Notes: generated by a model not told the origin, from the sequence alone. Positions 7,841 to 35,835 are shown, counted from the first letter of the stretch. The stretch: DNA of 64,000 nt from Minisyncoccota bacterium (GCA_041663005.1 JBAZRK010000001.1:28976-92975); one strand, 5' to 3'. Translations and numbers: made by a program.

Positions 7841-7881
7841 TGCTAAGATGTTAGAAGTTCTTTCAACAATTAAAAATACAT

Positions 7882-7953
7882 TCCGGGGTAGCTCAGCGGT
7901 AGAGCGGTCGCCTGTTAAGCGATTGGTCGTAGGTTCGATCCCTACCCCCGGAG
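7882..7953 (+). tRNA. tRNA-Asn (anticodon GUU)
   Basis: UCCGGGGUAGCUCAGCGGUAGAGCGGUCGCCUGUUAAGCGAUUGGUCGUAGGUUCGAUCCCUACCCCCGGAG: acceptor UCCGGGG/CCCCGGA, anticodon loop CUGUUAA, T-loop UUCGAUC, discriminator G; 3' end overlapped by the stop region of the recombinase ORF. Confidence 0.85.
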
Positions 7954-10763: not shown

Positions 10764-10764
10764 A

Positions 10765-12888
10765 TTACTTTGTTTTTTTATACTTACGATATTCTTTTAC
10801 AACATCAATAAGCTCATTTTCACACTTTTCGCCTGTAGTTGTAATACCAGCTTTTTCAACTTCAGCTATTGGGATTTGGTAATCAAACTTTGTTTTGATT
10901 TCTTGTTTGATTTCATTATCAATCGTGCTGTTTAGAGTATTAAGTTCTTTTTTCTTTGTCTTTTTTACTTCGCCTTTTAGGTCCTTAACTTCTTTTTCCA
11001 ATTTCTCTAATTCTTTTTGGTATTTTGCTCTAATAGAGTTATTAGCTTCTTCTTTTATCTTTTCATACTTTTTACTTTCTGCATCAGTAAACTTTTGTAA
11101 GAATACCAAGCTTGGTTTTACTGTAGCCCCACTAGCTATAAATACATCTTGAGGAATAGAAACGATAAGATCTATTTTCGCTCTACCTTCAAAGTATTCA
11201 CGGACCTTTTGCAAGTTAGGATTATTCAAAAATCCTTCAGGTAATACAACTGCCATTTTTCCGCCTTTCTTAAGTATTCTTAAGTAGCGTTCCATAAATA
11301 GAACTTCGGTAAGTGTTGAGAAGTTTCCAGTTTCGTATGTATCAATAAGATTTTTACCTATATTCCTCTCTAGGTTTCTAATTGCTTCTAAACCTTCTTC
11401 GCCAAATCTCTTTTGAATATAACTTTCTTTTCCTGCATATTTATTATCATTTTCAGTTATTTTTTGGTCCTTATTTACTCTTGAGCCAAAGGGTGGGTTA
11501 GTAAGAACTATGTCAAAGCGATTTTCAAATATACCTCCAACATCTAGTAAGCCGTCATTATGATGAACTCCTCCGTGTCCATCGCCGTGCATAATCATAT
11601 TCATTTTACTTGTTCTAGCCATTCTAGGGTTAGCATCAGAACCATAAATACATTTATGAGAAAGGTCATACAATCTTGAACCTTCGGTTTGATTATCTAA
11701 TTCTTTGTTTAGCTTTTTGAACTCTGTTTCAACAACTGCATCAATTTTTTCCTTTTCGGTATCATTTGATTTTTGATACTTTTCATCAAAGTATTTTTTC
11801 TTTATTTCTTCTTTTTTATTTAGAATATCATCTTCAATCTTTTCTCTTACATAATCAAACGCCTTAATAAGAAATCCTCCTGAGCCACAACAAGGGTCGC
11901 AAATCAGATCGCCTTCCTTTGGGTCCACAATATCAATCATAAAATCAACTATGGTTCTTGGTGTAAAGAATTGACCAAGTTCACCTCTAAAGGTTTTACC
12001 TAAGAATTGTTCAAAAGCTATACCTTTTACATCATCACCAGTATCAGAAAGGTTGTATCTTTCAAGTTCTTTCACTATTTGCTCAAAGCTATTTTCACGG
12101 ATTTTGATTTCTTCATTAGCTTCAAAGAGTTCATCTTTCTCAAAATCTTCTTTTGTCTTTTCAAATAGGACCTGATAGAAAGGTTTTGAGTTCTTAGATG
12201 CTGTTTCATCATATCCTTTTTTAAGTTCGTTGAAACGACTTATTGAGAATACCTTCTTTCCTTGCTGTCTTTCATATCTAATTTTTATAAACAAGATTTT
12301 ACTTATCTCATCAAAAGCACCTTCAGGGGATAGTTTGTCATTATTTCTAATTATATTGTGGCACTTGAAAAGTAGTTTTGAAAACTCATCTCTAGTAAAT
12401 ACTTTTGTTTCTTCAGCTAATTCTTTGAGCTTTTCTTCATCATTTACATCACTTGCTTTCGGTATGTTTACAATTTCATTCAAATCAACAGGGAGCTTAT
12501 TCTCAAGCATTTGAAAATACTTTGTTTCTGCATTGTTGTGAGTTATGAAAAACTTGGCTCTAGCCCAAGAAGCATAGTTATTACCTTGATAGTAATCTTC
12601 AGGGTGTATAACGACATTGTCTGACTTACATTCAACTACAATGAAAGCATTTGTTTTACTTAGTTTTTCTTCTTTTGATTTCCAAATTACAATATCCGCT
12701 CTTGATTTTCCTTGTCCTCTTTGGCTGTTATTTACTTGAAGTTCTTCATCCATTTGCTCAAGTGAATATCCGTAATCATTTACAAGTGTGCAAATATAAT
12801 TTTGTCGGACCTCTTCTTCAGGGGTATAAGAAAGCCACTTGTTTCTTAGAGGAGAGAATATCTTATTGTTTTCCATTTGTATTTTCAT
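10765..12888 (-). CDS. hsdM: type I RM N6-adenine DNA methyltransferase subunit with extra N-terminal HsdR-N/Mrr-like domain
   Basis: 707 aa; motif I DPCCGSGGFL, motif IV LTNPPFG; N-terminal ~130 aa (RADIVIWKS...NAFIVVECKSDN) matches HsdR N-terminal (PD-(D/E)xK-like) module pattern. Confidence 0.85.
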   Translation of the reverse strand: MKIQMENNKIFSPLRNKWLSYTPEEEVRQNYICTLVNDYGYSLEQMDEELQVNNSQRGQGKSRADIVIWKSKEEKLSKTNAFIVVECKSDNVVIHPEDYYQGNNYASWARAKFFITHNNAETKYFQMLENKLPVDLNEIVNIPKASDVNDEEKLKELAEETKVFTRDEFSKLLFKCHNIIRNNDKLSPEGAFDEISKILFIKIRYERQQGKKVFSISRFNELKKGYDETASKNSKPFYQVLFEKTKEDFEKDELFEANEEIKIRENSFEQIVKELERYNLSDTGDDVKGIAFEQFLGKTFRGELGQFFTPRTIVDFMIDIVDPKEGDLICDPCCGSGGFLIKAFDYVREKIEDDILNKKEEIKKKYFDEKYQKSNDTEKEKIDAVVETEFKKLNKELDNQTEGSRLYDLSHKCIYGSDANPRMARTSKMNMIMHGDGHGGVHHNDGLLDVGGIFENRFDIVLTNPPFGSRVNKDQKITENDNKYAGKESYIQKRFGEEGLEAIRNLERNIGKNLIDTYETGNFSTLTEVLFMERYLRILKKGGKMAVVLPEGFLNNPNLQKVREYFEGRAKIDLIVSIPQDVFIASGATVKPSLVFLQKFTDAESKKYEKIKEEANNSIRAKYQKELEKLEKEVKDLKGEVKKTKKKELNTLNSTIDNEIKQEIKTKFDYQIPIAEVEKAGITTTGEKCENELIDVVKEYRKYKKTK

Positions 12889-12896
12889 AATAGTTT

Positions 12897-13088
12897 TTAT
12901 TGTGTGCTTGTTTTCTTTAAGAATGCTTCAAAGTCCGACCTATCTATACGAAACTCTTTTCCTATCTTATGTGCCTTGAGTTTCTTTTTGTCTATGTAGC
13001 GATAAATTGTCATTATGTTTAGCCCCAATTTATCTGCTAAATCTTTGGCGGTGTAGAAATCTTTTTCTTTCATATGTTTTTTATTCAT
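12897..13088 (-). CDS. excisionase-family helix-turn-helix DNA-binding protein
   Basis: 63 aa; YTAKDLADKLGLNIMTIYRYIDKKKLKAHKIGKEFRIDRSDFEAFL matches excisionase/MerR-type HTH pattern (..LS..T.YR.I..G.L.A.K.G...RI...D...F). Confidence 0.65.
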   Translation of the reverse strand: MNKKHMKEKDFYTAKDLADKLGLNIMTIYRYIDKKKLKAHKIGKEFRIDRSDFEAFLKKTSTQ

Positions 13089-13106
13089 AGTTATATTTAT
13101 AATACT

Positions 13107-14243
13107 TTACTTTTCTTTACAAGGCAAATCTTGAAGAGTGGATAAACGGAATGGTTCAAAGTCCTTTAAGCTATGCTCTATTTGCCTTACCCAAGCGTGG
13201 TATGTTTTACCTGAAATATCATCAAGAAACTTCAAATCTTCTGCTATACGATACCAAGTCCGAGTTGTAGCGTATCTTTCAATAATGGATCTAGTATCTC
13301 TTATACCTTCCTTGCTAAGAGCCCTAAGTCCTACTAAGTAAATTGCATCTACTGGCTTTATTTTCGGCTTATTTTTGAAGATAGTATCTAGCGTTTTCTT
13401 TGGATTACTTTCTACATCAAACAAGAATAAGTTTTTACCTGTTATTAGTTCGGTCCAGTAATTGAGAAGTATTTTTTGACAAAGTTCTTTATTGAAAACC
13501 TCCTTAAAGGTTGGTTTTTCCTTGAACCCTAAACTTTTTAGAGTGGCATTCATTTTTACTTTTTTTGCAAGTCTAACTTCTATTCGTAATACTTCTTTTT
13601 TATCTTTTTTAATTAAGGTATCAAACAAGGAAAGTTGGACCGAGTTTTGGTCTTTATCCATTGCTCTTTTGTCTGGTTTTTTAAGGTCCTGAACTTTGTC
13701 ATAAACAACAAGCGAGTGTGAGTTCGTATAGAACTGAAGAGAGTGTCCGCTATTTCTGAAACTATCACGATTAAGGTCCATTTTCTTACTAACATCAATC
13801 TTGTGTAGTTCAGTAATAACAAAACTTGAAGTATAACCTTCTGTTAGTTCTATGTTTTTGGAGGGGTGGAAAGCAGATACTTTCGCATTTCTCAAATCTT
13901 CGTGAGATACGCCAACTAACATATCAAGCATTGCTTCGTGTAGAGCAGATATAACTTTTTCAAAGTCCTTTTCTTCAACTTCATCAACATTGTTTCCGTA
14001 TAGCATTTTGGCTACAGAGAACTCTATCTTCAGCGGTATTTCATCGCCGTTTCTTGTCATTCTTTTCATTAGGGTTAGGCGTGGCTTGTAAGTTCCTTGT
14101 TTTTTATCTGTAGCGGTTGGATTGTTTACGCATTTCACTAAGTAATTTCCTGACATCTTAAGAATGTTCGCATTCGGTGTAAATGCTTCAGGTCTGAGCT
14201 TATAGGATCCTCTAGGGATTGTTAGGATTACTGTATCTAGCAT
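13107..14243 (-). CDS. uncharacterised island protein, possibly a replication-initiation (Rep_trans/CRI-like) protein
   Basis: 378 aa; N-terminal MLDTVILTIPRGSYKL resembles start of rolling-circle/phage replication initiator families; no other recognisable motifs; assignment tentative. Confidence 0.35.
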   Translation of the reverse strand: MLDTVILTIPRGSYKLRPEAFTPNANILKMSGNYLVKCVNNPTATDKKQGTYKPRLTLMKRMTRNGDEIPLKIEFSVAKMLYGNNVDEVEEKDFEKVISALHEAMLDMLVGVSHEDLRNAKVSAFHPSKNIELTEGYTSSFVITELHKIDVSKKMDLNRDSFRNSGHSLQFYTNSHSLVVYDKVQDLKKPDKRAMDKDQNSVQLSLFDTLIKKDKKEVLRIEVRLAKKVKMNATLKSLGFKEKPTFKEVFNKELCQKILLNYWTELITGKNLFLFDVESNPKKTLDTIFKNKPKIKPVDAIYLVGLRALSKEGIRDTRSIIERYATTRTWYRIAEDLKFLDDISGKTYHAWVRQIEHSLKDFEPFRLSTLQDLPCKEK

Positions 14244-14446
14244 ATTTTTCTTTTACATATAAATGCGGATTTACTCTTTTATCAACCTTAAGAAGCAAGG
14301 CAAAAAAACCTAATACATTGTCTTGCTCTGTTTCGCTAAGTTCTTTTAACGACCAGTCCGTATTCAATTTTTCTTTGTTTTCTTCGGACATAAAAAAACC
14401 TATAAGGTTATGCTTATAGATTATTCTTATGCTTGTTTACAAAAGT

Positions 14447-16042
14447 TTATAAACTTTTGCGGACCTTTATATATTTTGGATTTATGGATATTGTCTTAGT
14501 TGTTATTTCAAGAAAATCCTTAATAGTAGTTTCTTGGGCTATGGTCCTATTTACTGCTTTTCCTGCTTGATAAGCTTTGTTTTTCTTTATCTTTTCGCCA
14601 AAAGAGTAGCCCCAATCTTCTTGTATTTCATCATTAGCCCAAGTTTTAGAAACATCTTTGAATAAGGTTCTCATTAGTTTATGCGGATCGCTTTCTTCTT
14701 TTTTGGCAATAAGTATTTCTTTTCCTGCAAAAATAAGTTTACGGTTTTTATCATCAAAAATAGGATTTTTATCAATCTTAATTTCTTTGACTGGTTCGGT
14801 TGTTTTTCTCTTATTACTTAATCTTACTTTGAAAAGATAACCTCTATCATATAAATCAAATAAATGTTTAGGACCATATGAAAAATCTTCAATAGTAAGA
14901 TAACCTTCTCTTTCTAAGGAAAGCATAGCGTGAACAAACAAAAACAAATCCTTTATTTTGTCTTTATCGTTCAATGGGACCAGTTTTACAGTGTTGTCTG
15001 TATAGTCGCCAATATACTCAGGTTCAAAGAATGGGTGTCCTATTTCTAGGTCATTTCTTTGATACTCTTCATATTTTCCTTCAATATGTTTTACAAGCAT
15101 ATCCCTTTGTTTTTTGAAGCCAAAAAATTGAGTATGCAAAGGCGTTGAAAGTCCTTTAGAAAAGAAAGTTCCAGTTAGTCCTTTTTTACTAGTTCCGTCT
15201 AATTCATCTCTTTCAAAAGAGGTTATATATTTATCTAAAAACGCTTCTAGTTTCGTGGTGTTTTTTATAGCCAATCCAAACTCAGCGTATTCAAAAATAA
15301 GTTTTGCTAATCTTGTTTGAGTATCTTCATAAAATGCTGTTTTTTCTGTAAGAGCATTTATTTTGAATTGTTCTTTGTTGTGCCTGAAATATATACTTAA
15401 AAACCCTTCAGCTTCTTTCGTGGTCCATTTACTGCCGTCATACTCAGTAATAAGTTTGTTTATTATTTCAATAAAATCTTTATCAGATTTTTTATTAAGA
15501 ATTGCTTCTTGATATTCTCTTACTGGGGGATTAGCTAATTTTGTAAATAACACTTGATCGTCTATGTTGTTTTTTCTTTTTCTACTTATCAATTCATCTA
15601 GGAATTGTTTTTGCTCTTTTGTTAGATATTTTAAGATTTCCTTATCTTTAGGGTTTTCTAAGTAATCATTCATTGAACCTCTAACATCATCGGTAAGAAA
15701 TCCTCCTTCAACCAAGCTATAATCAGCATTCGCATATACAATAAAACCTTTTTCATCAAGAAGTTTTCCTATCTCTAAAAGATAACGCAAGACAAAAGGA
15801 GAACCCATAAGAGAATCTATTCTCTTCATTGATTGCTCATATGAATTACTTATATCTTCTTCTAGTGTAGCAATTTCACTAGGTTGTTTTGGGATCTGTA
15901 TAGGCGTAAACTTTTGGTTGGGTGTAAATAATCCGCTATTATCAGTAGATATTCTTTTATATCTAAAAAGCCAATACAAAATAAGAAGCTCTTTTTCATC
16001 TAAGTATTTTTTGTCCTTATTTTCTATATCTAAGGGGTTCAT
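14447..16042 (-). CDS. hypothetical protein (531 aa), no recognisable domain
   Basis: Long uninterrupted ORF, AT-rich island codon usage, first gene of the co-oriented island operon; no Walker, nuclease or MTase motifs seen by eye. Confidence 0.55.
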   Translation of the reverse strand: MNPLDIENKDKKYLDEKELLILYWLFRYKRISTDNSGLFTPNQKFTPIQIPKQPSEIATLEEDISNSYEQSMKRIDSLMGSPFVLRYLLEIGKLLDEKGFIVYANADYSLVEGGFLTDDVRGSMNDYLENPKDKEILKYLTKEQKQFLDELISRKRKNNIDDQVLFTKLANPPVREYQEAILNKKSDKDFIEIINKLITEYDGSKWTTKEAEGFLSIYFRHNKEQFKINALTEKTAFYEDTQTRLAKLIFEYAEFGLAIKNTTKLEAFLDKYITSFERDELDGTSKKGLTGTFFSKGLSTPLHTQFFGFKKQRDMLVKHIEGKYEEYQRNDLEIGHPFFEPEYIGDYTDNTVKLVPLNDKDKIKDLFLFVHAMLSLEREGYLTIEDFSYGPKHLFDLYDRGYLFKVRLSNKRKTTEPVKEIKIDKNPIFDDKNRKLIFAGKEILIAKKEESDPHKLMRTLFKDVSKTWANDEIQEDWGYSFGEKIKKNKAYQAGKAVNRTIAQETTIKDFLEITTKTISINPKYIKVRKSL

Positions 16043-16083
16043 ATATACTTTACTTTACTTTACTTTTAGATATAATTCAATAG

Positions 16084-16871
16084 TGGAAAATCAAAAATAC
16101 AGATTATACATAGATGAGTCGGGCACTCATAAATACAGTAATTCTACTGACATCAAAGAACGCTATTTGTGTTTATTAGGGGTGATAATTTCTTCTGAGC
16201 ACAATCAAAACTTTATTTCTCCAAAATGGGAAGAGTTAAGAAATATATTTACACAAGATGCTGATTTTCCGCCTGTCTTTCATTATGTAGATGTTGTAAG
16301 TGGGAATAATGGGTTTGGAAAACTATCTGAACAAAATACCAGAGAAACATTTAATCAAAAGTATTTAGAACTCTTAAAAGATGGCGAATATACCATTTGT
16401 TGTGTTGTATTAGATAAAAAAACACATATTGAAACATATAATACCTCAGCTATGCATCCGTATCATTATTGCCTAAATGTTCTCTTGGAAAGATATGTAA
16501 GGTTTTTATCAAGTAAAAATGCAAGTGGTGATGTTTTAGCTGAAGCCAGAGGAAAAAAAGAAGATAATTTACTTCGTTCAGAGTTTGAGAGATTTTATGA
16601 ACACGGAACATCTTTTCTGGAAGCTGATATTGTAAAAAAGCGATTGACGAGCCATAAGCTAAAACTCAAAACTAAGGAAGCTAAAATTGCTGGTTTAGAA
16701 ATTGCAGATATGTTGGCTACGCCAATGAAGTATCTGACACTTAAAAAATATAAGAAAATAGATGCTCTGAGTGATAATTTTACAAAAACTGTATTAGATA
16801 CTGTTTTCTCTAAAGTTCGTAAAAGTCCCTTTACTGGTTCTACTCAAGGTTATGGGATCAAGCTAATATAA
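16084..16871 (+). CDS. DUF3800 family protein
   Basis: Probable GTG start at 16084 just after TATAAT (16070-16075); N-terminal YRLYIDESGT motif characteristic of DUF3800; annotated ORF extension to 15918 overlaps divergent gene and is rejected. Confidence 0.5.
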
Positions 16872-25386: not shown

Positions 25387-26934
25387 ATGATTACTCCCGA
25401 ACTTGAAAGTTATATTAAACAAGCTCGCATACAAGGTTTAAGTGATATGCAAATTCACCAAAACCTCCTCTCGGGTGGTTGGAGCGAAGCAGATTTAAAG
25501 GAAGCTGGAATTTCTTCCCCGGAAAATTCAGTTCCAACTTCATTTCAAGCTCCTATGTCTGCCATCCGGCCACATTTAATCCAGCAGACAACTACACCCG
25601 GTATGTATATACAGAAAAAGAGCCACGCAGGACTTTACGCCCTACTGATAATTATCTTTGTTCTTCTCGGCGCCGGAGGCGGATATGCTTACTACAAGCA
25701 TATTTGGCCTTTCCAAAACGAACTTACTGATCAGTCGAGGGAGGGTGGCGTTCAAGTATCGACAGAACCCATCAATTCTGAGGCTCAGAAACAATTTTTT
25801 TCGAACGAATACTATTCGCTGACATACCCTGGCCTTTGGACCCACAATGACAAAGACGGGGTAGATTATTTCCGCGCCCCCGTCGAGGAAAATTTTACCG
25901 CCAACCTGAGCGTCGCGCGCATCTCTCCGATGGCACCCGGCACCACGATAAAACAAATAGCCGAAGCTTCTAAGGCGGCATGGGCCTCTGAGACACCGTC
26001 CTATTTGGTTTTAAGCGAGAATGAAACGGTAACTACAGAGGGAGATCCGGCTTACGAAATAGTGTTCACCTTCACGGATGCTTCCCATGGGGATTTAAAA
26101 ATAACCCAGAAACAATATATGGTTTTGGTAGGGAGTGATTATTTTGTACTGACTTCTACTGCCACCCCAGGGTTGTTTGAGAAATATGCTGAAGATTTTA
26201 AGGCCATTGAACAGTCTTTCCTCATCAAAGCTCTTCCAGTTGAGCAAGAGGTCGCCGCACCCAAAGCAGAACCCGGCGCCTTTTGCGCCAAAGAACCCGT
26301 GGGGCTCACTATTTGGTACTCCGGAGGAAATCTCGTAGATTATAAAAACCTAAACACGCTTCTCCCTAAAGGAAAAGTAATATTTGCTCCAGGGAAAATA
26401 GACACCGCTTTTGGATTCGATGGCCTGACGGGTTATCTCCAAGGCGGAAGTAACAAAAACAACGATCCTACTTCGGCGGGCAGTATTATGGCTTGGGTCA
26501 AAGTTAATTCCCTACCTTCTGCGTCCCATATTATGCAAATTGTGGGCAAGGGTAGTGAGGGCAAGGATTTCGATCTTCAAATCAACAAGGACAATAAATT
26601 TCACTTTTATGTCGGAGCAGGCACTGACGTAGCGTCGGACACAGTAGTGAAGACGGGGAGTTGGTATCTCGTGGCGGGAACATGGGATTCTTCTGGGCTC
26701 AAGATGTATGTTAATGGGGTATTAGAAGAAGATAAGGCTGTGAAGGTTTCTCGCCTCGCGAGTGGTCAAAATCTTAGAATTGGCAGCCACCCATCTTTCC
26801 CAGGCAGGTTTTTCAACGGTGCTATCAGCGAAATAATGATCGCAACCAAGGCGATAACCGCAGAAGAAATAAAAGCAGTGTATGACGCGGGGTCAAAAGG
26901 CGTGTGTCGCCCAGAAACTCCCCCCAAGATATAA
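25387..26934 (+). CDS. paralog family member C: conserved N-terminal module + TM + LamG/concanavalin-A-like lectin domain
   Basis: 515 aa; N-term MITPELESYIKQARIQGLSDMQIHQNLLSGGWSEADLKEA (same module as 2587 and 3471 genes); C-terminal GSWYLVAGTWDSSGLKMYVNGVL typical of Laminin_G_3 fold. Confidence 0.75.
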   Translation: MITPELESYIKQARIQGLSDMQIHQNLLSGGWSEADLKEAGISSPENSVPTSFQAPMSAIRPHLIQQTTTPGMYIQKKSHAGLYALLIIIFVLLGAGGGYAYYKHIWPFQNELTDQSREGGVQVSTEPINSEAQKQFFSNEYYSLTYPGLWTHNDKDGVDYFRAPVEENFTANLSVARISPMAPGTTIKQIAEASKAAWASETPSYLVLSENETVTTEGDPAYEIVFTFTDASHGDLKITQKQYMVLVGSDYFVLTSTATPGLFEKYAEDFKAIEQSFLIKALPVEQEVAAPKAEPGAFCAKEPVGLTIWYSGGNLVDYKNLNTLLPKGKVIFAPGKIDTAFGFDGLTGYLQGGSNKNNDPTSAGSIMAWVKVNSLPSASHIMQIVGKGSEGKDFDLQINKDNKFHFYVGAGTDVASDTVVKTGSWYLVAGTWDSSGLKMYVNGVLEEDKAVKVSRLASGQNLRIGSHPSFPGRFFNGAISEIMIATKAITAEEIKAVYDAGSKGVCRPETPPKI

Positions 26935-28429: not shown

Positions 28430-28477
28430 TATTAAATTTATATTAACTCTTTACACAGGATTATTAACAGTCCTTGT

Positions 28478-29173
28478 TTGACGTGCTATAATGAAAATAT
28501 GGAACACTCAAAAAACAGTTGGGCTTGGGTTATCGGTGGGGCAGTTTTAATATTTACACTAGCATTTTTCTTCGGAGCTCGAGGCTTCTCAGACCAAGGG
28601 TCTTATGTGGAAGTTAAAGGTCTATCAGAGCGAATTGTTAAAGCCGATGTGGCTATTTGGTCGCTTAACTTTGAGGTAAAGTCTAATGATGTAGATAGCC
28701 TTTATGCCGGAATTGCCAAAAATACGGAGGCGATTAAGTCATTCCTGACTGCGAAAGGTTTCGAGGAAGCAGAAATTAACATTGCTCCAGTAAACATTTA
28801 CCAAGATACTTACCGTGACGCTTTGTTCCGATACAATTCGAATACACAGCTTTCCGTATATACCAAGAAAGTTGACCTAGTTCGCTCCGCCTCGAAAGAT
28901 ACTTTACTCTTAGTCAAACAAGGAGTTACCTTGAATCAAAATTCCATTGCTTTTGAATTCTCCGATATAAATTCAATAAAGCCGGAAATGCTAGCAGAAG
29001 CAATCAAGAACGCCAAAGCGTCCGCGGAGCAGTTTGCCACAGAGGCGGGTTCGGGTCTGGGGAAAATCACCCGAGGCAATCAGGGAGTTTTCGACATTTC
29101 CGACAAGGACCCAGGTTCGCCGGAATACAAGAAAATCCGAGTGGTTTCAACTTTGAGATTTTTACTTAAGTAG
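28478..29173 (+). CDS. SIMPL/DUF541 domain protein (periplasmic, signal-anchored)
   Basis: 231 aa; N-terminal TM; DUF541-like pattern through C-terminal QGVFDISDKD...IRVVSTLRF. Confidence 0.6.
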   Translation: MTCYNENMEHSKNSWAWVIGGAVLIFTLAFFFGARGFSDQGSYVEVKGLSERIVKADVAIWSLNFEVKSNDVDSLYAGIAKNTEAIKSFLTAKGFEEAEINIAPVNIYQDTYRDALFRYNSNTQLSVYTKKVDLVRSASKDTLLLVKQGVTLNQNSIAFEFSDINSIKPEMLAEAIKNAKASAEQFATEAGSGLGKITRGNQGVFDISDKDPGSPEYKKIRVVSTLRFLLK

Positions 29174-29175
29174 AC

Positions 29176-29625
29176 GTGCAAAATCAGAATAAAAAAATAG
29201 TGATGGTGAGTGGAGGTTTTGACCCGGTACATATCGGGCACGTGCGGCTATTCCAGGAAGCGAAGAAGTTGGGTGATGAGCTCGTGGTTGTAATAAACAA
29301 CGACAACTGGCTTCGCTTCAAGAAAGGTTTCGCGTTTATGTCGGAAATGGACCGAAAGGAAATTGTCGAATCATTTCGGTTCGTTGATCGTGTTCACATC
29401 ACTAGCCACGAAGAAGAAACGACTGATATATCCGTATGTCGTGAGATAGAGCTTATTCGGCCGCATATATTTGCCAATGGCGGAGATAGAAAGCAGGACA
29501 ACATTCCAGAATACGAACTCTGCAACCGCCTAGGCATCGAAATGGTTTTCAATGTAGGCGACGGCGGTAAAATCCGAAGTTCTTCTGAACTTGTTTTGAA
29601 AGCAAAAGAATTAATCAAAAAATAA
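29176..29625 (+). CDS. cytidylyltransferase-fold nucleotidyltransferase, RfaE domain II / RibL-like (sugar-1-phosphate or FMN adenylyl/cytidylyl-transferase)
   Basis: 149 aa, GTG start; GGFDPVHIGHVRLFQEAKKLGDELVVVINND matches G.FD..H.GHV..L..A..LGD.L.V..N.D signature of HldE domain II. Confidence 0.7.
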   Translation: MQNQNKKIVMVSGGFDPVHIGHVRLFQEAKKLGDELVVVINNDNWLRFKKGFAFMSEMDRKEIVESFRFVDRVHITSHEEETTDISVCREIELIRPHIFANGGDRKQDNIPEYELCNRLGIEMVFNVGDGGKIRSSSELVLKAKELIKK

Positions 29626-29626
29626 G

Positions 29627-30394
29627 ATGCTGCCAGATAAAAAAATTATTGCTTTTGACGTGGATGGTACCCTGACGGCAAGCAAAACTTTAATTACCGA
29701 CAGTATGGCGGCGTTGATAAAGAAATTAATAAAAGAAAGAGTGGTCGTTGCCATTGCTGGTGGGAGCTTCGAACAAATGAAGACTCAGTTTTTGCCGCCG
29801 TTTGTAAACGATAGTTCTATGTTGCCTTATATCAAGAATTTTACCTTACTACCTACGAGTGGCAGTCAGCGGTACGAGTATGATGAGAAGACGAAAGAAT
29901 GGCTTTTGACTGACAAAGAACCCTTGTCCGAAGAGGTAAAAGCCAGAGCCATAAGTTTACTGGAAGAAGTCATTCTTAATCCCGAATACGAGATACCCCC
30001 TAATCCTTATGGCAAGATTATTGAAGACAGAGATACTCAGATTACCTTTACTCCGAACGGTCAGCAGGCGCCTGTGGACGTAAAATTGCGTTTTGACCCC
30101 GATAGGCGCAAACGGCAAAAAATAAAAGAAATGCTTGAGCCACATTTATCGGAGGTTACTATTTTAATTAATGGGACTTCGAGCATAGACATTCTGCCGA
30201 AAGGTTTTAATAAAGCTGTGGGAATGAATAGATTTCTAAAGAAAGCAGGACTAGAGAAATCCGATGTAATTTTCGTTGGTGACGGGCTTTTCCCGGGAGG
30301 AAACGATTATTCTATATATGAAGACGGTTTTGAAACCATAGCAGTTAAAAGTCCAACAGAGACTGAGGCACTTATAGCGGGGTGGATTGGTTAA
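29627..30394 (+). CDS. eukaryotic-type phosphomannomutase (HAD-IIB, PMM family)
   Basis: 255 aa; FDVDGTLT HAD motif I; C-terminal FVGDGLFPGGNDYSIYEDGFETIAVKSPTET aligns with PMM GDKTMPGGNDHEIF...V..PEDT. Confidence 0.7.
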   Translation: MLPDKKIIAFDVDGTLTASKTLITDSMAALIKKLIKERVVVAIAGGSFEQMKTQFLPPFVNDSSMLPYIKNFTLLPTSGSQRYEYDEKTKEWLLTDKEPLSEEVKARAISLLEEVILNPEYEIPPNPYGKIIEDRDTQITFTPNGQQAPVDVKLRFDPDRRKRQKIKEMLEPHLSEVTILINGTSSIDILPKGFNKAVGMNRFLKKAGLEKSDVIFVGDGLFPGGNDYSIYEDGFETIAVKSPTETEALIAGWIG

Positions 30395-30424
30395 AAAAGC
30401 TTTTTGGGTTTATAATTAAAACAT

Positions 30425-30775
30425 ATGGAGGAAATCAAGCCATTTGAAGTTGTGCGTCCTTGGGGAAAATTCAGGCAATTCTCATCTAACGTTGTTAGTT
30501 CTGTGAAAATTCACGATGTTAGTCCCCTGGGTAAGTCGAGTCTCCAGAGCCACGGTAAGCGAGCGGAATTCTGGCATATTATTAGTGGTAGCGGGACGGT
30601 ACAAATAGACGAAAAGGAGCATATGGCTCACGCTGGGGATGAATTTGTAGTTTCACAAGGTATGAAACATCGCTGGACCGGAGGTCCTGAGGGGATGAAG
30701 GTTTTAGAAATAATGACGGGGGACTTCGTGGAAGATGACGAGGTTCGTTATGACGACAAATATGGCCGCGCTTAA
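30425..30775 (+). CDS. cupin-type mannose-6-phosphate isomerase (type II PMI C-terminal-domain-like)
   Basis: 116 aa; VVRPWGKF, AEFWHIISGSGTV, HRW.G cupin motifs as in ManC/PMI cupin domains. Confidence 0.6.
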   Translation: MEEIKPFEVVRPWGKFRQFSSNVVSSVKIHDVSPLGKSSLQSHGKRAEFWHIISGSGTVQIDEKEHMAHAGDEFVVSQGMKHRWTGGPEGMKVLEIMTGDFVEDDEVRYDDKYGRA

Positions 30776-31988
30776 AATGCAAAAGCCCCGACGCCCAAAG
30801 GGATCGGGGTCCCGACTGAAAACGTCGGGAAAAAAAGTAATAAAGAAGAAAAGTGTTGCCGTAAAAAAGAAAACGGTTAAGGTAAAGGTAGCAATAAAGA
30901 AAAAGATAATTGCCAAGAAAGTCATACGAAAGACTCCGGCTAAATCGCGAGCGAAAATTTTAAAGAAAAAAATTTCACTGCTTGAGCTGCAAAGGTCCAA
31001 GAAGAACCCAATAATTATGCCAGACAGTAGTCGCTACTGGGAATCGAAAGCCGCCTTTAATCCGAGTGCCATAGTGCACGATGGCAAAGTCCATATTATT
31101 TATCGGGCGATAGGCGAGAGCGATGTTTCGGTTCTGGGTTATGTGGACAGCCGCGACGGTCTTTCTTTCGATAAAAACTCCAAAATGTTGGCCTACTGGA
31201 GCAAGAAGAAACCCGCAATATATATTTCCGATCCAAAAGTTTTGTATTCTTCCGGCGGTGGTTGGGGAGGAGGATGTGAAGATCCGAGGCTCACACTTCT
31301 TGGCGACAGGGTTTATATGCTCTACACTCTGTTTGACGGCTGGGGGTCGCTGCGAATCGCTATGACCTCAATAAGCTTGAATGATTTCATCAACAAACGT
31401 TTCAACTGGAGAGAGCCGGTGCTAATTTCTCCTCCGGGCGAGATACATAAAAATTGGGTTTTGTTCCCGGAGAAGATTGGCGGTAAGTACGCCATTATGC
31501 ACAGCTTCGCGCCGAAGATTCTAATCGATTACTTTGATAGTTTGGACGAGCTAGACGGTAAAAAGTTTATTAAGAGTAACAATACTCGACCAATCGACAA
31601 GACTCGCACCTGGGACAGCTGGTTCCGTGGCGTGGGTCCTTCTCCCATTAAAACGAAATATGGATGGCTCATAATTTACCAAGCCATGAATCATCTAAAC
31701 CCGGACCGTTACCGCATTGGCGCCATGCTTTTGGACATCAAAGACCCGACGCGAGTTCTTTATCGTTCAAATGAGCCGATTCTTGAGCCCGAGGAATGGT
31801 ATGAGAACGAAGGATACAAGAGTGGGGTGGTGTATTCGTGTGGGGCAGTGGTGAAAGATAGAACGCTCTTTGTGTACTACGGTGGCGCCGACAAGGTTTC
31901 ATGTGTGGCTACTGCAGACTTAGATAAGTTCTTAAAAGAGCTTGTGCGAACCGGAACGACGAAATTAAAAAGTAGCGCTAAAAAATAA
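30762..31988 (+). CDS. GH130-family beta-mannoside phosphorylase/hydrolase with ~90-aa Lys-rich N-terminal extension
   Basis: ~408 aa (start 30762 or 30777; overlaps upstream stop); K-rich tail KKVIKKKSVAVKKKTVKVKVAIKKKIIAKKVIRK; GH130 core (AFNPSAIVHDGKVHIIYRAIG, CEDPRLT, YGGADK). Confidence 0.75.
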   Translation: MAALKMQKPRRPKGSGSRLKTSGKKVIKKKSVAVKKKTVKVKVAIKKKIIAKKVIRKTPAKSRAKILKKKISLLELQRSKKNPIIMPDSSRYWESKAAFNPSAIVHDGKVHIIYRAIGESDVSVLGYVDSRDGLSFDKNSKMLAYWSKKKPAIYISDPKVLYSSGGGWGGGCEDPRLTLLGDRVYMLYTLFDGWGSLRIAMTSISLNDFINKRFNWREPVLISPPGEIHKNWVLFPEKIGGKYAIMHSFAPKILIDYFDSLDELDGKKFIKSNNTRPIDKTRTWDSWFRGVGPSPIKTKYGWLIIYQAMNHLNPDRYRIGAMLLDIKDPTRVLYRSNEPILEPEEWYENEGYKSGVVYSCGAVVKDRTLFVYYGGADKVSCVATADLDKFLKELVRTGTTKLKSSAKK

Positions 31989-31997
31989 AAAGAATTC

Positions 31998-33926
31998 ATG
32001 TTTGTTGTAAAAAGGTCTCACCACAATCCGATTTTAGTACCGTACAAAGACCATTATTGGGAGGCGTATGCCTCTTTTAATATGAGTGTCGAGAAGCGAG
32101 GGCGAACGTTCTATGGGGTGTACCGGGCTATGAGCGCTGAAGATAAAATGCAGAACCCATCCCGAATCTCAAGTATCGGCTTAGGGAAAAGTTCAGACGG
32201 CGTTCATTTTAAAGATTGTGTTTCGTTTATATCACCCAAAGAAGAGTGGGAAAAATATGGATGCGAAGATCCGCGTTTGACGTATTTCGAAGGTAATTAT
32301 TATATTTTTTATACAGCCTTATCGAAATATCCTTTCGAGGCAGAGGGAATTAAGGTTGCGGTCGCCGTCTCGAAGGATATGAAAACAATCAAAGAGCGAC
32401 ATCTAGTGACACCTTTTAACGCTAAGGCTATGGTGCTTTTCCCCGAGCGGGTCAACGGCAAGGTTACGGCGATTCTCACAATGCATACAGATTCTCCGCC
32501 GTCTAGAATTGTGGTGGCTCAAGCAGATGAGGTTAAAGAATTTTGGGATCAGAGATTTTGGGAAAAATGGAACGAAAATATCGACCGTCACACCATTGAC
32601 CCGAGGAGGTTCCCGTCTGACCACGTAGAAGTCGGCGCTGTGCCTGTAAAAACTAAGGCCGGCTGGCTCCTCCTCTATTCTCACATTCAGAACTATTTTC
32701 CAACTGGCGAAAACTTAGAACGAATTTTCGGTATCGAAGCCGTGTTACTCGATTTGCATAACCCCGAACATATAATTGGACGTACGGAGGGTCCCATTTT
32801 GGCGCCTCAGGAGCCTTATGAGATGATAGGTCACGTACCTGACGTGATTTTCCCCACCGGAGCGGTCTTAAAAAAGGATAAACTTTTTATTTATTACGGA
32901 GCCGCTGATACTACCACTTGTGTCGCCCATGTGAATTTATCCGATTTGGTTGAAACAATGCGTCCGGAAGATATAAATTCGATGTATCGCTTCCGACGTT
33001 ACGAGGAAAATCCAATTATCGAGCCAGATCCGTCCCACGAATGGGAGGCTCAGGCAACCTTTAACCCTGCAGCTTTGAAAATTGGAAATACGATACATAT
33101 TCTCTATAGAGCACTTTCACCCGACAACACTTCGGTCATAGGTTATGCCAGTACAAACGACGGCGTACATATCCGCGAGCGGGACGCGGTGCCTGTGTAT
33201 ATACCCCGGGAGGATTTCGAAGCCAAGAAAGTCCCCGGTGGGAATTCCGGATGCGAAGATCCGCGCTTAGTGAAAATAGGTAAGATTATTTATATGTGCT
33301 ATACGGCTTACGATGGTATAAATTTGCCTAGAGTCGCTGTGACGTCGATATCAGAGAAAGATTTTGTAAATAAAAATTGGAATTGGGAAAAGCCAATTGT
33401 TATTACTCCGGCTGGCTTTGACGACAAGGACGCTTCTATTTTTCCGGAGCGAATCAATGGCAAATATTTCATTATCCATCGAGTGGGCGGAGAGATTTGT
33501 GGAGATTACCTGGAGTCTCTTGATTTTCACCACGAAACAGTTGATAAATGTATTCGGATTTTCGGTCCAAGATTAAACGCGTGGGATAGCTCTAAGGTTG
33601 GAATCTCTGCTCCACCTATGAAAACCAAGCACGGCTGGCTCTTGCTCTACCACGGAATTTCTAAAAATCACAATACGTATCGCGTTGGGGCGGCGTTACT
33701 TTCCTTGAAGGATCCGTCCATAGTGCTGGCGCGAACAACTGACCCTATATTTGAGCCAGAAGAACAGTATGAAAAGGAGGGAATAATTCGTAACGTGGTT
33801 TTCCCTTGTGGTATGGTAGAGAAAAATAAATTGCTCTATGTTTACTACGGTGGAGCTGACAAAGTAGTAGGAGTAGCGACTATTCACCTTGATACGCTCC
33901 TTAAGACGCTTTCGCGCGATCTTTAG
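31998..33926 (+). CDS. tandem double GH130 protein (two GH130 modules fused)
   Basis: 642 aa; module 1 (SFNMSV...YRAMS, CEDPRLTYF, YGAADT) and module 2 from ~aa 325 (TFNPAALKIGNTIHILYRALS, CEDPRLVKI, YGGADK). Confidence 0.8.
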   Translation: MFVVKRSHHNPILVPYKDHYWEAYASFNMSVEKRGRTFYGVYRAMSAEDKMQNPSRISSIGLGKSSDGVHFKDCVSFISPKEEWEKYGCEDPRLTYFEGNYYIFYTALSKYPFEAEGIKVAVAVSKDMKTIKERHLVTPFNAKAMVLFPERVNGKVTAILTMHTDSPPSRIVVAQADEVKEFWDQRFWEKWNENIDRHTIDPRRFPSDHVEVGAVPVKTKAGWLLLYSHIQNYFPTGENLERIFGIEAVLLDLHNPEHIIGRTEGPILAPQEPYEMIGHVPDVIFPTGAVLKKDKLFIYYGAADTTTCVAHVNLSDLVETMRPEDINSMYRFRRYEENPIIEPDPSHEWEAQATFNPAALKIGNTIHILYRALSPDNTSVIGYASTNDGVHIRERDAVPVYIPREDFEAKKVPGGNSGCEDPRLVKIGKIIYMCYTAYDGINLPRVAVTSISEKDFVNKNWNWEKPIVITPAGFDDKDASIFPERINGKYFIIHRVGGEICGDYLESLDFHHETVDKCIRIFGPRLNAWDSSKVGISAPPMKTKHGWLLLYHGISKNHNTYRVGAALLSLKDPSIVLARTTDPIFEPEEQYEKEGIIRNVVFPCGMVEKNKLLYVYYGGADKVVGVATIHLDTLLKTLSRDL

Positions 33927-35164
33927 AGTTCGGATATATCTCTTGCCGAAAGTAGATTTATGGTCCACTCGATGGCGACTCGTAGTTTTTTGCGTAAAGA
34001 GATAAATTTAAACAAATAAACTGTTCGCCAAATCCACCACGCTAACTTCCCATAAAAAGTGAAGCCCTTCACTTCACCGGCTGCCATCCACTGGCCCAGG
34101 GAGAGCATAGAGCCCAAGTGCTTGTATCTAAATTCCTTCGGCGGTAGTTCAGACAATATGAGGCTGATGTTTTGAGCCAATGTGCGGGCCTCTTGTTCCG
34201 CCACTTGAGCTAGGGCAGGCAAGTATCCGTTATTGTCTTTGAATGCGGCAAGGTCGCCAATCGCAAAAATATTTTTATGATTTGTTAATGCGAAAAATTT
34301 GTCAACAATTAAACGCCCATCGGCGGTTGCTTCTGTTTTCTGGTCGAACTCTGGAGCGTTACCTCTAACTCCCCCTACCCAGATCACAGTTTCGCTTTCT
34401 AGTTTTTGACCATCGGCTAAGCCGATAAAATCTACCCCAACTTCTGTCACCGAGCTTTCAAGCATAACATTGACACCCTTTTTCCTGAGAACTTGTAAAC
34501 TTTTTTGCCTGATTTTTTCACCGAATTGGGCTAAAAGCTCCTTGTCTCGGTGGATGAGCACCAGGGAAACATATTTTAAAACTCCGTATCTATAGTAGCG
34601 AGAAAACGTATCTTGAATTAACTCGGCTAGTTCGGCAACAAGCTCAACTCCCGTGGGACCACCACCTACCACCACAAAGCGAAGCATCTTGTGTTTTTTA
34701 TCCTCGTCCGCTACTTGAGAGGCGTGTTCTATTTGGGAGATGACGCGATTTTTAATATTTATAGCGTCTTCAATTGATTTTAAGGTGTAGGAATATTGCT
34801 CGGCACCAGGTATTCCATAGAAATTAGTTGTTGCGCCGGTGGCGAGCACCAAGTAGTCATAAAGTACGGCACCGTCTTTGGTTGTTACTGTTTGGTTTAC
34901 AGTATCTATAAACTGAGCTTTCCCAAGATAAAATTTATTCAAGCAACAACCCAATACTTTACGTATCGGCTCTACGATATTACTGCGATTTAATCCGCCG
35001 GTGGCAACTTCGTGAAGTAGGGGAGTAAAAAGGAAATAATTTTTCTCGCTTATAAGTGAGAGCTCTATATTTTTGGTGTTGTGAGCAAATTTGTGCAAAT
35101 ATTTCAGGGCATATATACCGCCAAATCCGTTGCCCACAATTACTACCCTTACCGGTTTTTCCAT
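33923..35164 (-). CDS. ndh: type II NADH dehydrogenase (NDH-2) / FAD-dependent pyridine nucleotide-disulfide oxidoreductase
   Basis: 413 aa; VRVVIVGNGFGGIYA and RFVVVGGGPTGVE Rossmann motifs, FAIGDLAAF. Confidence 0.75.
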   Translation of the reverse strand: MEKPVRVVIVGNGFGGIYALKYLHKFAHNTKNIELSLISEKNYFLFTPLLHEVATGGLNRSNIVEPIRKVLGCCLNKFYLGKAQFIDTVNQTVTTKDGAVLYDYLVLATGATTNFYGIPGAEQYSYTLKSIEDAINIKNRVISQIEHASQVADEDKKHKMLRFVVVGGGPTGVELVAELAELIQDTFSRYYRYGVLKYVSLVLIHRDKELLAQFGEKIRQKSLQVLRKKGVNVMLESSVTEVGVDFIGLADGQKLESETVIWVGGVRGNAPEFDQKTEATADGRLIVDKFFALTNHKNIFAIGDLAAFKDNNGYLPALAQVAEQEARTLAQNISLILSELPPKEFRYKHLGSMLSLGQWMAAGEVKGFTFYGKLAWWIWRTVYLFKFISLRKKLRVAIEWTINLLSARDISEL

Positions 35165-35202: not shown

Positions 35203-35835
35203 ATGACAGAATCGGTTGTATGGGTTCAGTCTTTCATTGCTAATTATTCAGCTTGGAAGTACGTGATAATTTTTCTAGGAGCAGCTTTTGGTGGCGAGCC
35301 TGCCGTATTAGTGCTGTCCTTTCTTGCCGCACAAGGGATATTCCCCTTGGCCCCATACATAGCTGTGAGCTTTCTTGGTGTATTTTCTTCTGATTGTCTG
35401 TATTTTTTTCTGGGAAGGACGGCAATTGCCAAGAAAGCCATCGAACATAGATATGCGACTAAAACAATTTCGGTAATTATTGAAGTTATAAATCGGCTTT
35501 CTAGGGGCAGGCATACAATTGCCTTTATAATGGCAAAGTTCGTCATAGGTACCAGGGCTGTTCTTATTATGTATGTAAGTAAAACAGGGCTTTCTTTGGG
35601 AAAATTCATGCGACATAATTTACCGGCGATCGTGATTTGGCTCGTTATCGTTAGTGCTACGGGCTACCTGTCGGGTTTAGGTTTTGCTCACATTTCGAAA
35701 ACCATCGAGAATGTATATGCCGGTATCGGATTTGTGTTGTTAATTTTAATAATTCTTATGGCAATCCAGCGCTGGTTCAATAAGACAATTGAAAAGGAAG
35801 AAGAGAAAGTTTTGGAAGAAGAAAATATGATATAA
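35203..35835 (+). CDS. DedA/SNARE-associated family membrane protein
   Basis: 210 aa; multiple TM helices, DedA-like pattern; tentative. Confidence 0.5.
   Translation: MTESVVWVQSFIANYSAWKYVIIFLGAAFGGEPAVLVLSFLAAQGIFPLAPYIAVSFLGVFSSDCLYFFLGRTAIAKKAIEHRYATKTISVIIEVINRLSRGRHTIAFIMAKFVIGTRAVLIMYVSKTGLSLGKFMRHNLPAIVIWLVIVSATGYLSGLGFAHISKTIENVYAGIGFVLLILIILMAIQRWFNKTIEKEEEKVLEEENMI

Follow-up and report, generated by a model that had tools for sequence, protein, structure and literature searches.

The gene cluster Teth514_1785-1796 of Thermoanaerobacter sp. X-514 encodes a β-1,2-oligomannan phosphorylase (Teth514_1788) and a β-1,2-mannobiose phosphorylase (Teth514_1789) (PMC4264767), both canonical phosphorylases of family GH130, together with an ABC importer, a GH5 enzyme, a true ManC and a GT4 enzyme. 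In Roseburia intestinalis, a locus with the GH130 phosphorylases RiGH130_1 and RiGH130_2, a mutase that interconverts mannose-1-phosphate (Man-1-P) and mannose-6-phosphate (Man-6-P) (RiPgm) and a Man-6-P isomerase (PMI) domain provides an ATP-sparing route into glycolysis, as was shown experimentally (PMC6385246). In the mannogen system of Leishmania (MTP1-7 of family GT108, PMI, phosphomannomutase (PMM) and GDP-mannose pyrophosphorylase; Sernee 2019 as summarised in PMC10913872 and PMC12814180), a cytosolic β-1,2-mannan is built and consumed by paralogous five-bladed propellers, which split into transferase-only and phosphorylase forms via changes of the phosphate-binding Arg, and the cycle is fed from fructose-6-phosphate (Fru-6-P) through Man-6-P and Man-1-P to a nucleoside diphosphate (NDP)-mannose. 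Here we analyzed positions 29,176 to 33,926 of a 64,000-nucleotide stretch of DNA from a Minisyncoccota bacterium (GCA_041663005.1, JBAZRK010000001.1:28976-92975; the whole stretch is called the window), which encode three GH130 modules of different phosphate-site classes (A, N and C) behind genes of hexose-phosphate metabolism. The component families are known, and so is the pathway logic, from Thermoanaerobacter, Roseburia and Leishmania. Tentatively, and at somewhat less than an even chance, we read this locus as a cytoplasmic, reversible, mannogen-like β-1,2-mannoside make-and-break cycle linked to Fru-6-P. Its features are the following:

29176-29625, + strand: nucleotidyltransferase (NT), 149 aa, cytidylyltransferase fold (PF01467), HIGH motif at H19-H22
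29627-30394, + strand: putative HAD-IIB hexose-phosphate mutase of the PMM/PgmH family, 255 aa, PF03332 and Hydrolase_3
30425-30775, + strand: small single-domain cupin of the type-II PMI C-terminal family, 116 aa, PF01050
30735-31988, + strand: single-module GH130 open reading frame (ORF) as listed, 417 aa, PF04041 once
30762-30980, + strand: Lys-rich, acid-poor N-terminal tail of the single-module GH130 protein, recognized by its composition in orthologs
30981-31988, + strand: GH130 class A module, with the β-1,2 signature and a remodelled phosphate site
31998-33926, + strand: two-module GH130 gene, 642 aa, PF04041 twice
31998-32972, + strand: GH130 class N module, residues 1-325 of the 642-aa protein
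32973-33926, + strand: GH130 class C module, residues 326-642 of the 642-aa protein

A preliminary description of this DNA had already placed five ORFs and their domains here, and this was confirmed, since the same-strand ORFs span exactly 29176-33926, with spacings of +1 and +30 nt, an overlap and +9 nt, and the Pfam matches, all of which exceed the curated cut-offs, agree. The GH130 family model PF04041 (cut-off 26) was matched at 129 bits by the 417-aa protein and at 322 bits, in two stretches, by the 642-aa protein, and three CEDPR donor motifs are readable in the modules. The probable true start of the fourth gene is 30762, giving 408 aa, as in the NCBI model and in the orthologs, which begin with MAALK. 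The strong family matches and the conserved synteny confirmed that the locus is not a chance pattern. The earlier remark that the cluster is a large investment for a reduced genome is reasonable, because the source belongs to Candidatus Paceibacterota, within the candidate phyla radiation (CPR, Patescibacteria).

For each of the three modules, the nearest relatives among characterised enzymes are Teth514_1788 and Teth514_1789 (30-39% identity, 140-206 bits, TM scores of 0.86-0.88). Both the Thermoanaerobacter cluster and the window contain several adjacent intracellular GH130_6-type enzymes without signal peptides and, linked to them, a putative Man-1-P-activating enzyme. The window differs in that there is no importer, that the PMI and the mutase lie within the operon, that an NT of cytidylyltransferase fold replaces ManC, and that the phosphate site is altered in two of the three modules, one of which is fused to the phosphorylase. 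The Roseburia locus has the same combination of GH130, mutase and isomerase, but its GH130_1 and GH130_2 enzymes are β-1,4-specific, whereas the signature in the window is β-1,2, and it also has a secreted GH26 enzyme, an ABC transporter, an epimerase, esterases and a mutase of another family. The Leishmania system differs in its propeller family, GT108, for which we know of no hydrolase-like member: no MTP chain was found among the phmmer matches to the GH130 proteins, and in Foldseek the MTPs 6Q50 and 6Q4X were distant neighbours (TM score of ~0.62, 13-15% identity). Furthermore, the NT fold is unlike that of GDP-mannose pyrophosphorylase, and the CPR polymer is predicted from genes. Our searches of the literature on GH130 in Patescibacteria and on PMM and PMI in CPR bacteria yielded neither the operon nor multi-module GH130 proteins nor classes A and N; a passing remark records that GH130 genes in a CPR genome lack signal peptides (PMC7143001), and in a sequence-network study of GH130 every sizeable uncharacterised cluster but one was assigned to phosphorylases with the R/H pair (PMC7660257).

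The linkage and phosphate-site signatures were read at diagnostic positions taken from PMC7660257 (Table 2), PMC4599007, PMC12814180 and PMC10913872, which were scored on 130 two-module homologs, 120 class A orthologs and 150 representatives of at most 50% identity. Residue equivalences were derived by counting in the printed alignments, with K184, R202 and R242 of Uhgb_MS mapping onto NKD, HR and aRvG, and with E206/E247 of 4ONZ showing the same 41-residue spacing as E227/E268 of BT3780. The +1 subsite pair is Y/R (Tyr103/Arg150) in β-1,4 enzymes and E/K in β-1,2 enzymes (PMC7660257, PMC12814180). An E-D pair and a Lys at the position of UhgbMP R150 were invariant in all three modules and in all homologs, and the Y/R pair of β-1,4/N-glycan enzymes was observed in none of the three modules nor in the homologs examined. 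The donor Asp (UhgbMP D104) corresponds to D183 in class A, D91 in class N and D421 in class C, invariant in 120, 130 and 131 homologs, respectively. In PDB searches the best solved relatives of every module were the β-1,2 enzymes Teth514_1788 (9FJ8) and Teth514_1789 (7FIP), at 140-206 bits versus 69-91 bits for UhgbMP and RaMP2; class C reached 206 bits with 7FIP and 204 bits with 9FJ8, and class A 176 bits with Teth514_1788. These results go against the several linkage specificities and the β-mannan or N-glycan-core substrate that had been proposed at first, since all the modules bear the β-1,2 signature and none has the β-1,4 Y/R pair. UhgbMP had been the best match for the N module in a search with the whole protein; a β-1,4/N-glycan assignment of this module was rejected because, when searched alone, it matched the β-1,2 enzymes at 140 bits and UhgbMP at 91 bits, and because it carries the E/K signature.

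The phosphate ligands of GH130 enzymes are R168 and H231 (UhgbMP), and also K184, R202 and R242 of Uhgb_MS and a Tyr, according to the same diagnostic papers; in the hydrolases, two glutamates (E227 and E268 of BT3780) replace them (PMC4599007). The diagnostic residues of class C (R371, E420, D421, K477, H494-R495, K533, H552, Y561 and D621) were invariant in 131 sequences, bar one Tyr at H552, so that the phosphate pair is present as R495 in 131/131 and as H552 in 130/131. K533 matches the Lys of the proven phosphorylase Teth514_1789, and class C is predicted to be a canonical β-1,2-mannoside phosphorylase. Class N retains the donor Asp91 and the subsite residues R43, E90, K143 and D304, but the Arg/His pair has been lost, with T164 at the Arg position and S228 at the His position. 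Among its 130 homologs the Arg position was occupied by Thr (82), Ser (42) or Ala (6) and never by Arg, as was also the case in the representatives of at most 50% identity, and the His position by Ser (125), Ala (4) or Gly (1). The Tyr position is F244 (128/130), and H209 stands at the position of R242. Two glutamates are conserved in this class, Glu211 in 130/130 and Glu247 in 129/130. The first aligned to E247 of 4ONZ, i.e., to the base E268 of BT3780, in L-INS-i, hmmalign and profile-profile hhalign alike; a large MAFFT --auto alignment, which shifts the class N columns by two residues, was not used for this position. Mutation of E268 in BT3780 causes a 200-fold loss of activity (PMC4599007). 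In class A, S257 occupies the Arg position, which in the 120 orthologs was Ser (98), Ala (15), Gly (6) or Asn (1) and never Arg; the R242 position is hydrophobic and is followed by an invariant Arg298 (120/120), shifted by one position, and the His position, Q316 in the window, was His in 105/120 and Gln in 15/120. The three phosphorylases of the preliminary description were thus not recovered, because only the C-terminal module retains the ligands R168/H231. The comparison of the phosphate Arg/His with Glu that it had suggested gave a divided answer: the pair is kept in class C and lost in class N, where E211 is present, and the Arg is lost in class A.

Class N resembles the Bacteroides GH130_3 enzymes BT3780 and BACOVA_03624 (PMC4599007) in the loss of the basic phosphate ligands, the Glu at the E268 position and the E/K subsite. 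Unlike them, it lacks both a signal peptide and a counterpart of the E227 glutamate, and its residue aligned to H231 is Ser where they have Asn. It forms a clade of its own, with 31% identity to GH130_3-like proteins versus 33% to phosphorylases. Neither GH130_3 glutamate is present in classes A and C. In classes A and C, loop L2, which decides nucleotide-sugar access (PMC12814180), has the same short length as in the Teth514 enzymes; class N has two additional residues there. In the published decision tree, an enzyme with a short L2 and four phosphate contacts is classed as a phosphorylase that is weakly active as a transferase, three contacts point rather to a transferase, and a base in the pocket denotes a hydrolase (PMC12814180). 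On this tree class C would be a phosphorylase, class A a transferase-leaning enzyme with weak phosphorylase activity and class N a hydrolase.

When the N module was searched with HMMER against 1.8 billion representatives, 3078 matches were obtained, the best 150 of which were split into modules and scored at the diagnostic columns. Among these best 150 there were ten N+C fusions, one fusion in the reverse order (C+N), one triple A+N+C fusion of 971 aa in the order of the window genes (locus L011), free-standing class N proteins of 320-345 aa, and proteins in which a degenerate module is joined to class A or to class C. The arrangement of an A gene followed by an N-C gene was found in the window and in loci L001-L007, L010, L015 and L019-L023. 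The variants were C-N followed by x-x-A (L012), x-C followed by N (L014), x-A' followed by N-C (L007) and x-C' followed by N-C (L008), and in these four loci the extra modules are degenerate and lack the donor Asp. The three classes always co-occur, are sometimes fused and appear to form a functional unit. Between orthologs, identity was 49-70% for N modules and 52-72% for C modules; as both are equally conserved, the N module is not decaying. Mean identity between classes was 31-41%. The AlphaFold2 model of the 642-aa protein was confident (pLDDT of 86, pTM of 0.83) and consisted of two all-β propellers, whose nearest folds in Foldseek were again Teth514_1788 and Teth514_1789 (0.88 to 9FJ8). 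A two-module N-C gene, 49% identical to the window protein, was also observed on a contig binned as 'uncultured Gammaproteobacteria' (L009, CAZLZN010000010.1), where it adjoins an ORF with an IS1595-type transposase zinc ribbon and has no class A partner nearby; either the contig is mis-binned or the gene has been transferred. In addition, the N-C protein of L015 (4591-7680, P0242) is extended at its C terminus by ~400 aa that are largely helical and do not match GH130.

The class A protein of the window starts with ~75 Lys-rich residues, nearly none of which are acidic. In the 120 orthologs this tail has a median length of 52 aa, with 42% K+R and 2.4% D+E, its composition being kept and its sequence not. 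The tail was noted in L001, L003-L006, L010 and P0121-P0240, and in L007 and L008 a degenerate extra GH130-like propeller takes its place. An over-long ORF as the origin of the tail was ruled out, because the 120 orthologs that carry it share the MAALK start. Binding of the tail to an anionic surface or polymer would be a guess.

The conservation of gene order was analyzed in ten related loci obtained by a scan of one genome per species. In tblastn searches with the window proteins, the single-module GH130 gene was directly upstream of the two-module gene in 9/10 loci, including one in a Levybacteria genome, and the NT, HAD and cupin genes were variably present ahead of the pair. Look-ups that started from NT homologs, and not from GH130, returned the order NT-HAD-cupin-GH130-GH130 in 5/5 places, with a spacing of 1 nt between NT and HAD and with the housekeeping genes HPF, fmt and def following. 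The GH130 genes of the representatives of at most 50% identity likewise have HAD/PMM and PF01050 cupin genes on their flanks, in some cases in a different order. The operon is ~70% identical across Paceibacterota, and the GH130 trio is present in Levybacteria and in other CPR lineages. Hence, the five-gene unit is an operon that is conserved in Paceibacterota and found in other CPR lineages.

In three loci one of the accessory genes is replaced by a gene of another family. In L001 the slot between the NT and the first GH130 gene is occupied by a 540-aa α-D-phosphohexomutase (PF02878/79/80) that is not a HAD protein; in L015 a type-I PMI (PF20511+PF21621) stands in the slot of the small cupin; and in L011 a true ManC (PF00483 and the ManC β-helix) overlaps the start of the fused GH130 gene, in a slot equivalent to that of the NT. 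Because of this non-orthologous displacement, the slots are taken to be those of a hexose-phosphate mutase, a Man-6-P isomerase and a sugar-1-phosphate nucleotidyltransferase, for which it is probably the best available evidence. The backbone from GH130 through Man-1-P and Man-6-P to Fru-6-P, as set out in the preliminary description, appears well supported, since HAD/PMM and cupin genes travel with GH130 in distant lineages and are replaced by others of the same function. Its placement of the NT at the head of the cluster was also right, the NT being the first gene in every NT-started look-up, with ManC equivalently placed in L011. In L019-L022 a divergently transcribed His_Phos_1 (histidine phosphatase/PGM-like) gene lies directly upstream of the NT, and a FAD_binding_4/FAD-oxidase_C gene adjoins the cluster in two distant lineages (P0245 context and L017).

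The HAD protein matched PF03332 at 47.5 bits (cut-off 22.4), Hydrolase_3 at 56 bits and TIGR01484 (HAD-IIB) at 81.1 bits (cut-off 41.8), and its nucleophile motif DxDxT is D11-V-D13-G-T. It belongs to the same HAD-IIB family as PgmH of L. lactis and the eukaryotic PMM1 and PMM2, with which it aligned over the full length, with DxDxT and GDxxxxD conserved. Its nearest structure was the L. lactis α-phosphoglucomutase (PgmH, 4BND) at 113 bits, rather than a PMM (PMM2 62 bits, all PMM structures 62 bits or less); the label 'eukaryotic-type PMM' therefore stands as far as the family model and the motif go, and not for the nearest structure. As PgmH is reportedly glucose-specific, the sequence alone cannot settle the sugar specificity of the HAD protein. 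Mannose is favoured by the context, i.e., by the adjacent cupin PMI and by the displacement by an enzyme of the PGM/PMM superfamily, and in this context the protein would interconvert Man-1-P and Man-6-P. The cupin matched PF01050 (MannoseP_isomer) at 60.8 bits (cut-off 23.6), the match reaching the end of the profile, and RPWG and the metal ligands Q41-x-H43-x4-E48 and H82 are kept in 12 orthologs; it would interconvert Man-6-P and Fru-6-P.

The NT matched PF01467 (CTP_transf_like) at 47 bits. Against TIGR02199 (rfaE_dom_II) it scored 81.7 bits, below the equivalog cut-off of 181.5, so that a heptose-1-phosphate adenylyltransferase equivalog (RfaE-II/HldC) was ruled out and, of the earlier 'RfaE-II-like' label, only membership of the superfamily (PF01467, TIGR00125, HxGH) is left. 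No Pfam match to the NTP_transferase fold of ManC (PF00483) was found in the window NT, and its closest PDB match was 3GLV, an uncharacterised archaeal protein (59 bits), followed by TagD. The NT is 70-89% identical across >100 Patescibacteria clusters and is more conserved than the GH130 genes behind it. Several of its homologs carry precomputed FAD_syn (PF06574) matches, and the archaeal FAD synthase RibL is also a small protein with this fold (PMC11423594). The NT could serve a housekeeping function, FMN adenylylation for example; its sequence does not single out a substrate.

In the make-and-break cycle that we tentatively prefer, the PMI, the mutase and the NT would form a de novo pathway from Fru-6-P to Man-1-P and NDP-mannose, the latter being supplied by the NT to class A. 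This module would prime or elongate chains by nucleotide-sugar transfer, with weak phosphorolysis, and it leans to a transferase because it has one phosphate contact fewer and a short L2 loop in terms of the published tree. Class C would catalyze the reversible reaction (Man-β-1,2)n + Pi to (Man)n-1 + α-Man-1-P, in a direction set by the Pi/Man-1-P ratio, and class N would act without phosphate, most likely as a β-1,2-mannosidase that trims or finishes chains, so that the trio would build and recycle the polymer. The substrate would most likely be made by the cell itself, as a small reserve or a hexose-phosphate/phosphate buffer like the mannogen of Leishmania, and this is the least certain step. 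The earlier proposal of a host or environmental substrate was not supported: neither signal peptide-like nor transmembrane stretches were found in the five proteins, and no sugar importer, binding protein or secreted mannanase adjoins the cluster in the 64-kb window or in 24 neighbourhoods (23 retrieved loci and one gene table without DNA). In one locus, unrelated genes separate the cluster from an ABC permease at a distance of 4.5 kb, and another locus has a MacB-type exporter.

Several points weigh against this cycle. We know of no report of a β-1,2-mannan in a CPR bacterium. Of the two mannosidase glutamates, class N has just one; class A keeps the Lys, the Tyr, usually the His and a nearby Arg, and could still be a phosphorylase; and every class assignment depends on a few aligned residues. 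In GT108 such residues are necessary, but the Arg/His switch is not sufficient to predict phosphorylase versus transferase activity (PMC10913872), and the authors of the GH130 study warn that glycosyltransferase (GT) activity in this family may be a curiosity (PMC12814180). Transporters may lie elsewhere in the genome, of which 64 kb were seen. The fold of the NT differs from that of every known Man-1-P guanylyltransferase. Its degree of conservation resembles that of a housekeeping enzyme, and it may be a FAD synthase of the RibL type. Finally, the combination of GH130, mutase and PMI is an experimentally proven catabolic arrangement in Roseburia (PMC6385246).

This last point leads to the close, main rival, which is the earlier reading with the linkage corrected and which we regard as quite possible. 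In this rival, host or environmental β-1,2-manno-oligosaccharides are imported and broken down in the cytoplasm, class C, and possibly class A, phosphorolyses them, class N hydrolyses them, and the HAD mutase and the cupin PMI convert Man-1-P to Fru-6-P free of ATP cost, part of it being diverted by the NT to an NDP-sugar. Besides the route demonstrated in R. intestinalis, it can draw on the cluster of Teth514_1788 and Teth514_1789, the closest characterised enzymes, which was proposed for salvage of β-1,2-mannosides into GDP-mannose (PMC4264767), and on the PMI and the mutase, which are the accessory genes most consistently linked to GH130. Genes of lower glycolysis and the pentose-phosphate pathway are also present in the window, where GAPDH, RpiB, Rpe, a split transketolase, a PfkB kinase and GlmS are encoded, and Fru-6-P would therefore be usable. 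However, in contrast to the loci of Thermoanaerobacter and Roseburia, an ABC or other sugar importer, a binding protein or a secreted glycanase adjoins the cluster in 0/24 neighbourhoods. The phosphate site is missing from two of the three modules, and a purely catabolic operon would need no leading NT. Moreover, β-1,2-mannans are rare in nature, yet the trio is ~70% identical across Paceibacterota and is present in Levybacteria; because of this phylum-wide conservation a universal substrate fits better than a host-specific one.

It is improbable that the locus serves the cell envelope, with the PMI, the mutase and the NT feeding a β-mannosylated surface glycan or glycolipid as a de novo source of NDP-mannose, the GH130 modules acting as non-Leloir or weak Leloir β-1,2-mannosyl synthases and as editors of this glycoconjugate, and the tail holding class A at the anionic inner face of the membrane. 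GT2 genes do occur near the GH130 genes in L011, L012 and L014: in L011 the fused A-N-C gene is immediately preceded by genes for ManC, a GT2 of 652 aa, an epimerase and a sugar dehydrogenase, and in L012 and L014 the GT2 genes adjoin. The polycationic tail, conserved in 120 orthologs, would fit such a role, as would the finding that all tested β-1,2 GH130 phosphorylases show some GDP-mannose transferase activity (PMC12814180). On the other hand, this activity is weak in vitro, a flippase, a polyprenyl-phosphate transferase and a GT are absent from the window operon and from most Paceibacterota contexts, and a canonical phosphorylase module argues for turnover rather than one-way export. Least probable of all is that only class C is catalytic, with N and perhaps A as non-catalytic chain-binding or regulatory propellers, which would hold the substrate or provide the dimer interface, and the NT as an unrelated housekeeping adenylyltransferase, e.g., a RibL-type FAD synthase, that has no more than the transcript in common with them: in GH130 phosphorylases, which function as dimers, the active site is shaped by loop L2 of the other subunit (PMC12814180), the pTM of 0.83 suggests a fixed N/C arrangement, clearly degenerate modules without the donor Asp exist in L007, L008, L012 and L014, and the NT is highly conserved, with weak FAD_syn matches and the RibL precedent, but N and A, unlike those degenerate modules, show no variation at the donor Asp or at any -1/+1 subsite residue and have gained invariant residues of their own (E211/E247 in N and the shifted Arg in A), class N also occurs as a free-standing protein of 320-345 aa, and ManC fills the NT slot in L011.

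Turning to the surroundings, a SIMPL/DUF541 gene lies 2 nt before the NT in the window, and the only strong promoter-like site of the region precedes it. This site, at 28464-28499, is TTAACA-17-TATAAT with an extended TG (11/12, the best of the region), and it ends 7 nt ahead of the first ATG of the SIMPL gene (28499), so that a leaderless mRNA is conceivable for SIMPL, and perhaps also for the entire operon transcript downstream. No regulatory RNA was found in or before the operon at the Rfam gathering threshold, and a terminator scan detected nothing convincing within it. Downstream, a convergent NDH-2 gene (33923-35164, - strand) overlaps the GH130 stop by 4 nt, and a DedA/VTT membrane protein gene (35203-35835, + strand) lies between the operon and HPF; because HPF directly follows the GH130 gene in relatives, these two genes represent a local two-gene insertion. 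A membrane-anchored Laminin_G_3 (Concanavalin-A-like) protein with a PsbP-like domain is encoded at 25387-26934 of the window, and in L007 a pilin-like (N_methyl) Laminin_G_3 protein (5046-5918) directly follows the GH130 gene; both are possible glycan-binding surface proteins. Farther away, a low-GC island at 7881-16871 (0.31-0.33 versus ~0.44 elsewhere) begins at tRNA-Asn(gtt) (7881-7957) and looks like an integrative element inserted at the tRNA. It carries genes for a serine recombinase (7942-9426, - strand), a type I restriction-modification specificity subunit (9423-10763, - strand), an N6-methylase/HsdR_N fusion (10765-12888, - strand) and a DUF3800 protein (15918-16871, + strand), and two large ORFs without Pfam match (13107-14243 and 14447-16042, - strand). 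A bacterial class A RNase P RNA at 1496-1897 of the window scored 102.6 bits, just above the Rfam gathering score of 100, suggesting that this CPR genome has a divergent RNase P RNA.

CPR bacteria have few metabolic genes, and an operon that is ~70% identical across a phylum-level group is likely central to their lifestyle. If plain salvage is true, β-1,2-mannosides would be a widespread, unrecognised nutrient of episymbiotic bacteria. Classes N and A represent natural experiments in converting a phosphorylase site to water or to another donor, the natural A-N-C and C-N fusions point to physical cooperation, and, as β-mannoside synthesis is chemically hard, new GH130 enzymes of the synthase type would be of practical value. 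The full proposal, namely that CPR bacteria make, store and remobilise an intracellular β-1,2-mannan by means of a synthase-like (A), a hydrolase-like (N) and a phosphorylase (C) form, with NDP-mannose fed from the operon by a non-canonical NT, is doubtful; if it is true, the polymer would be an ATP-neutral carbon and phosphate buffer for minimal fermenters, and two uncharacterised functional classes would be added to GH130. An endogenous polymer would make the locus considerably more interesting: the make-and-break cycle, if true, would be the first storage or buffer polymer proposed for CPR bacteria, and an independent bacterial parallel of the mannogen cycle, which is a virulence determinant in Leishmania.

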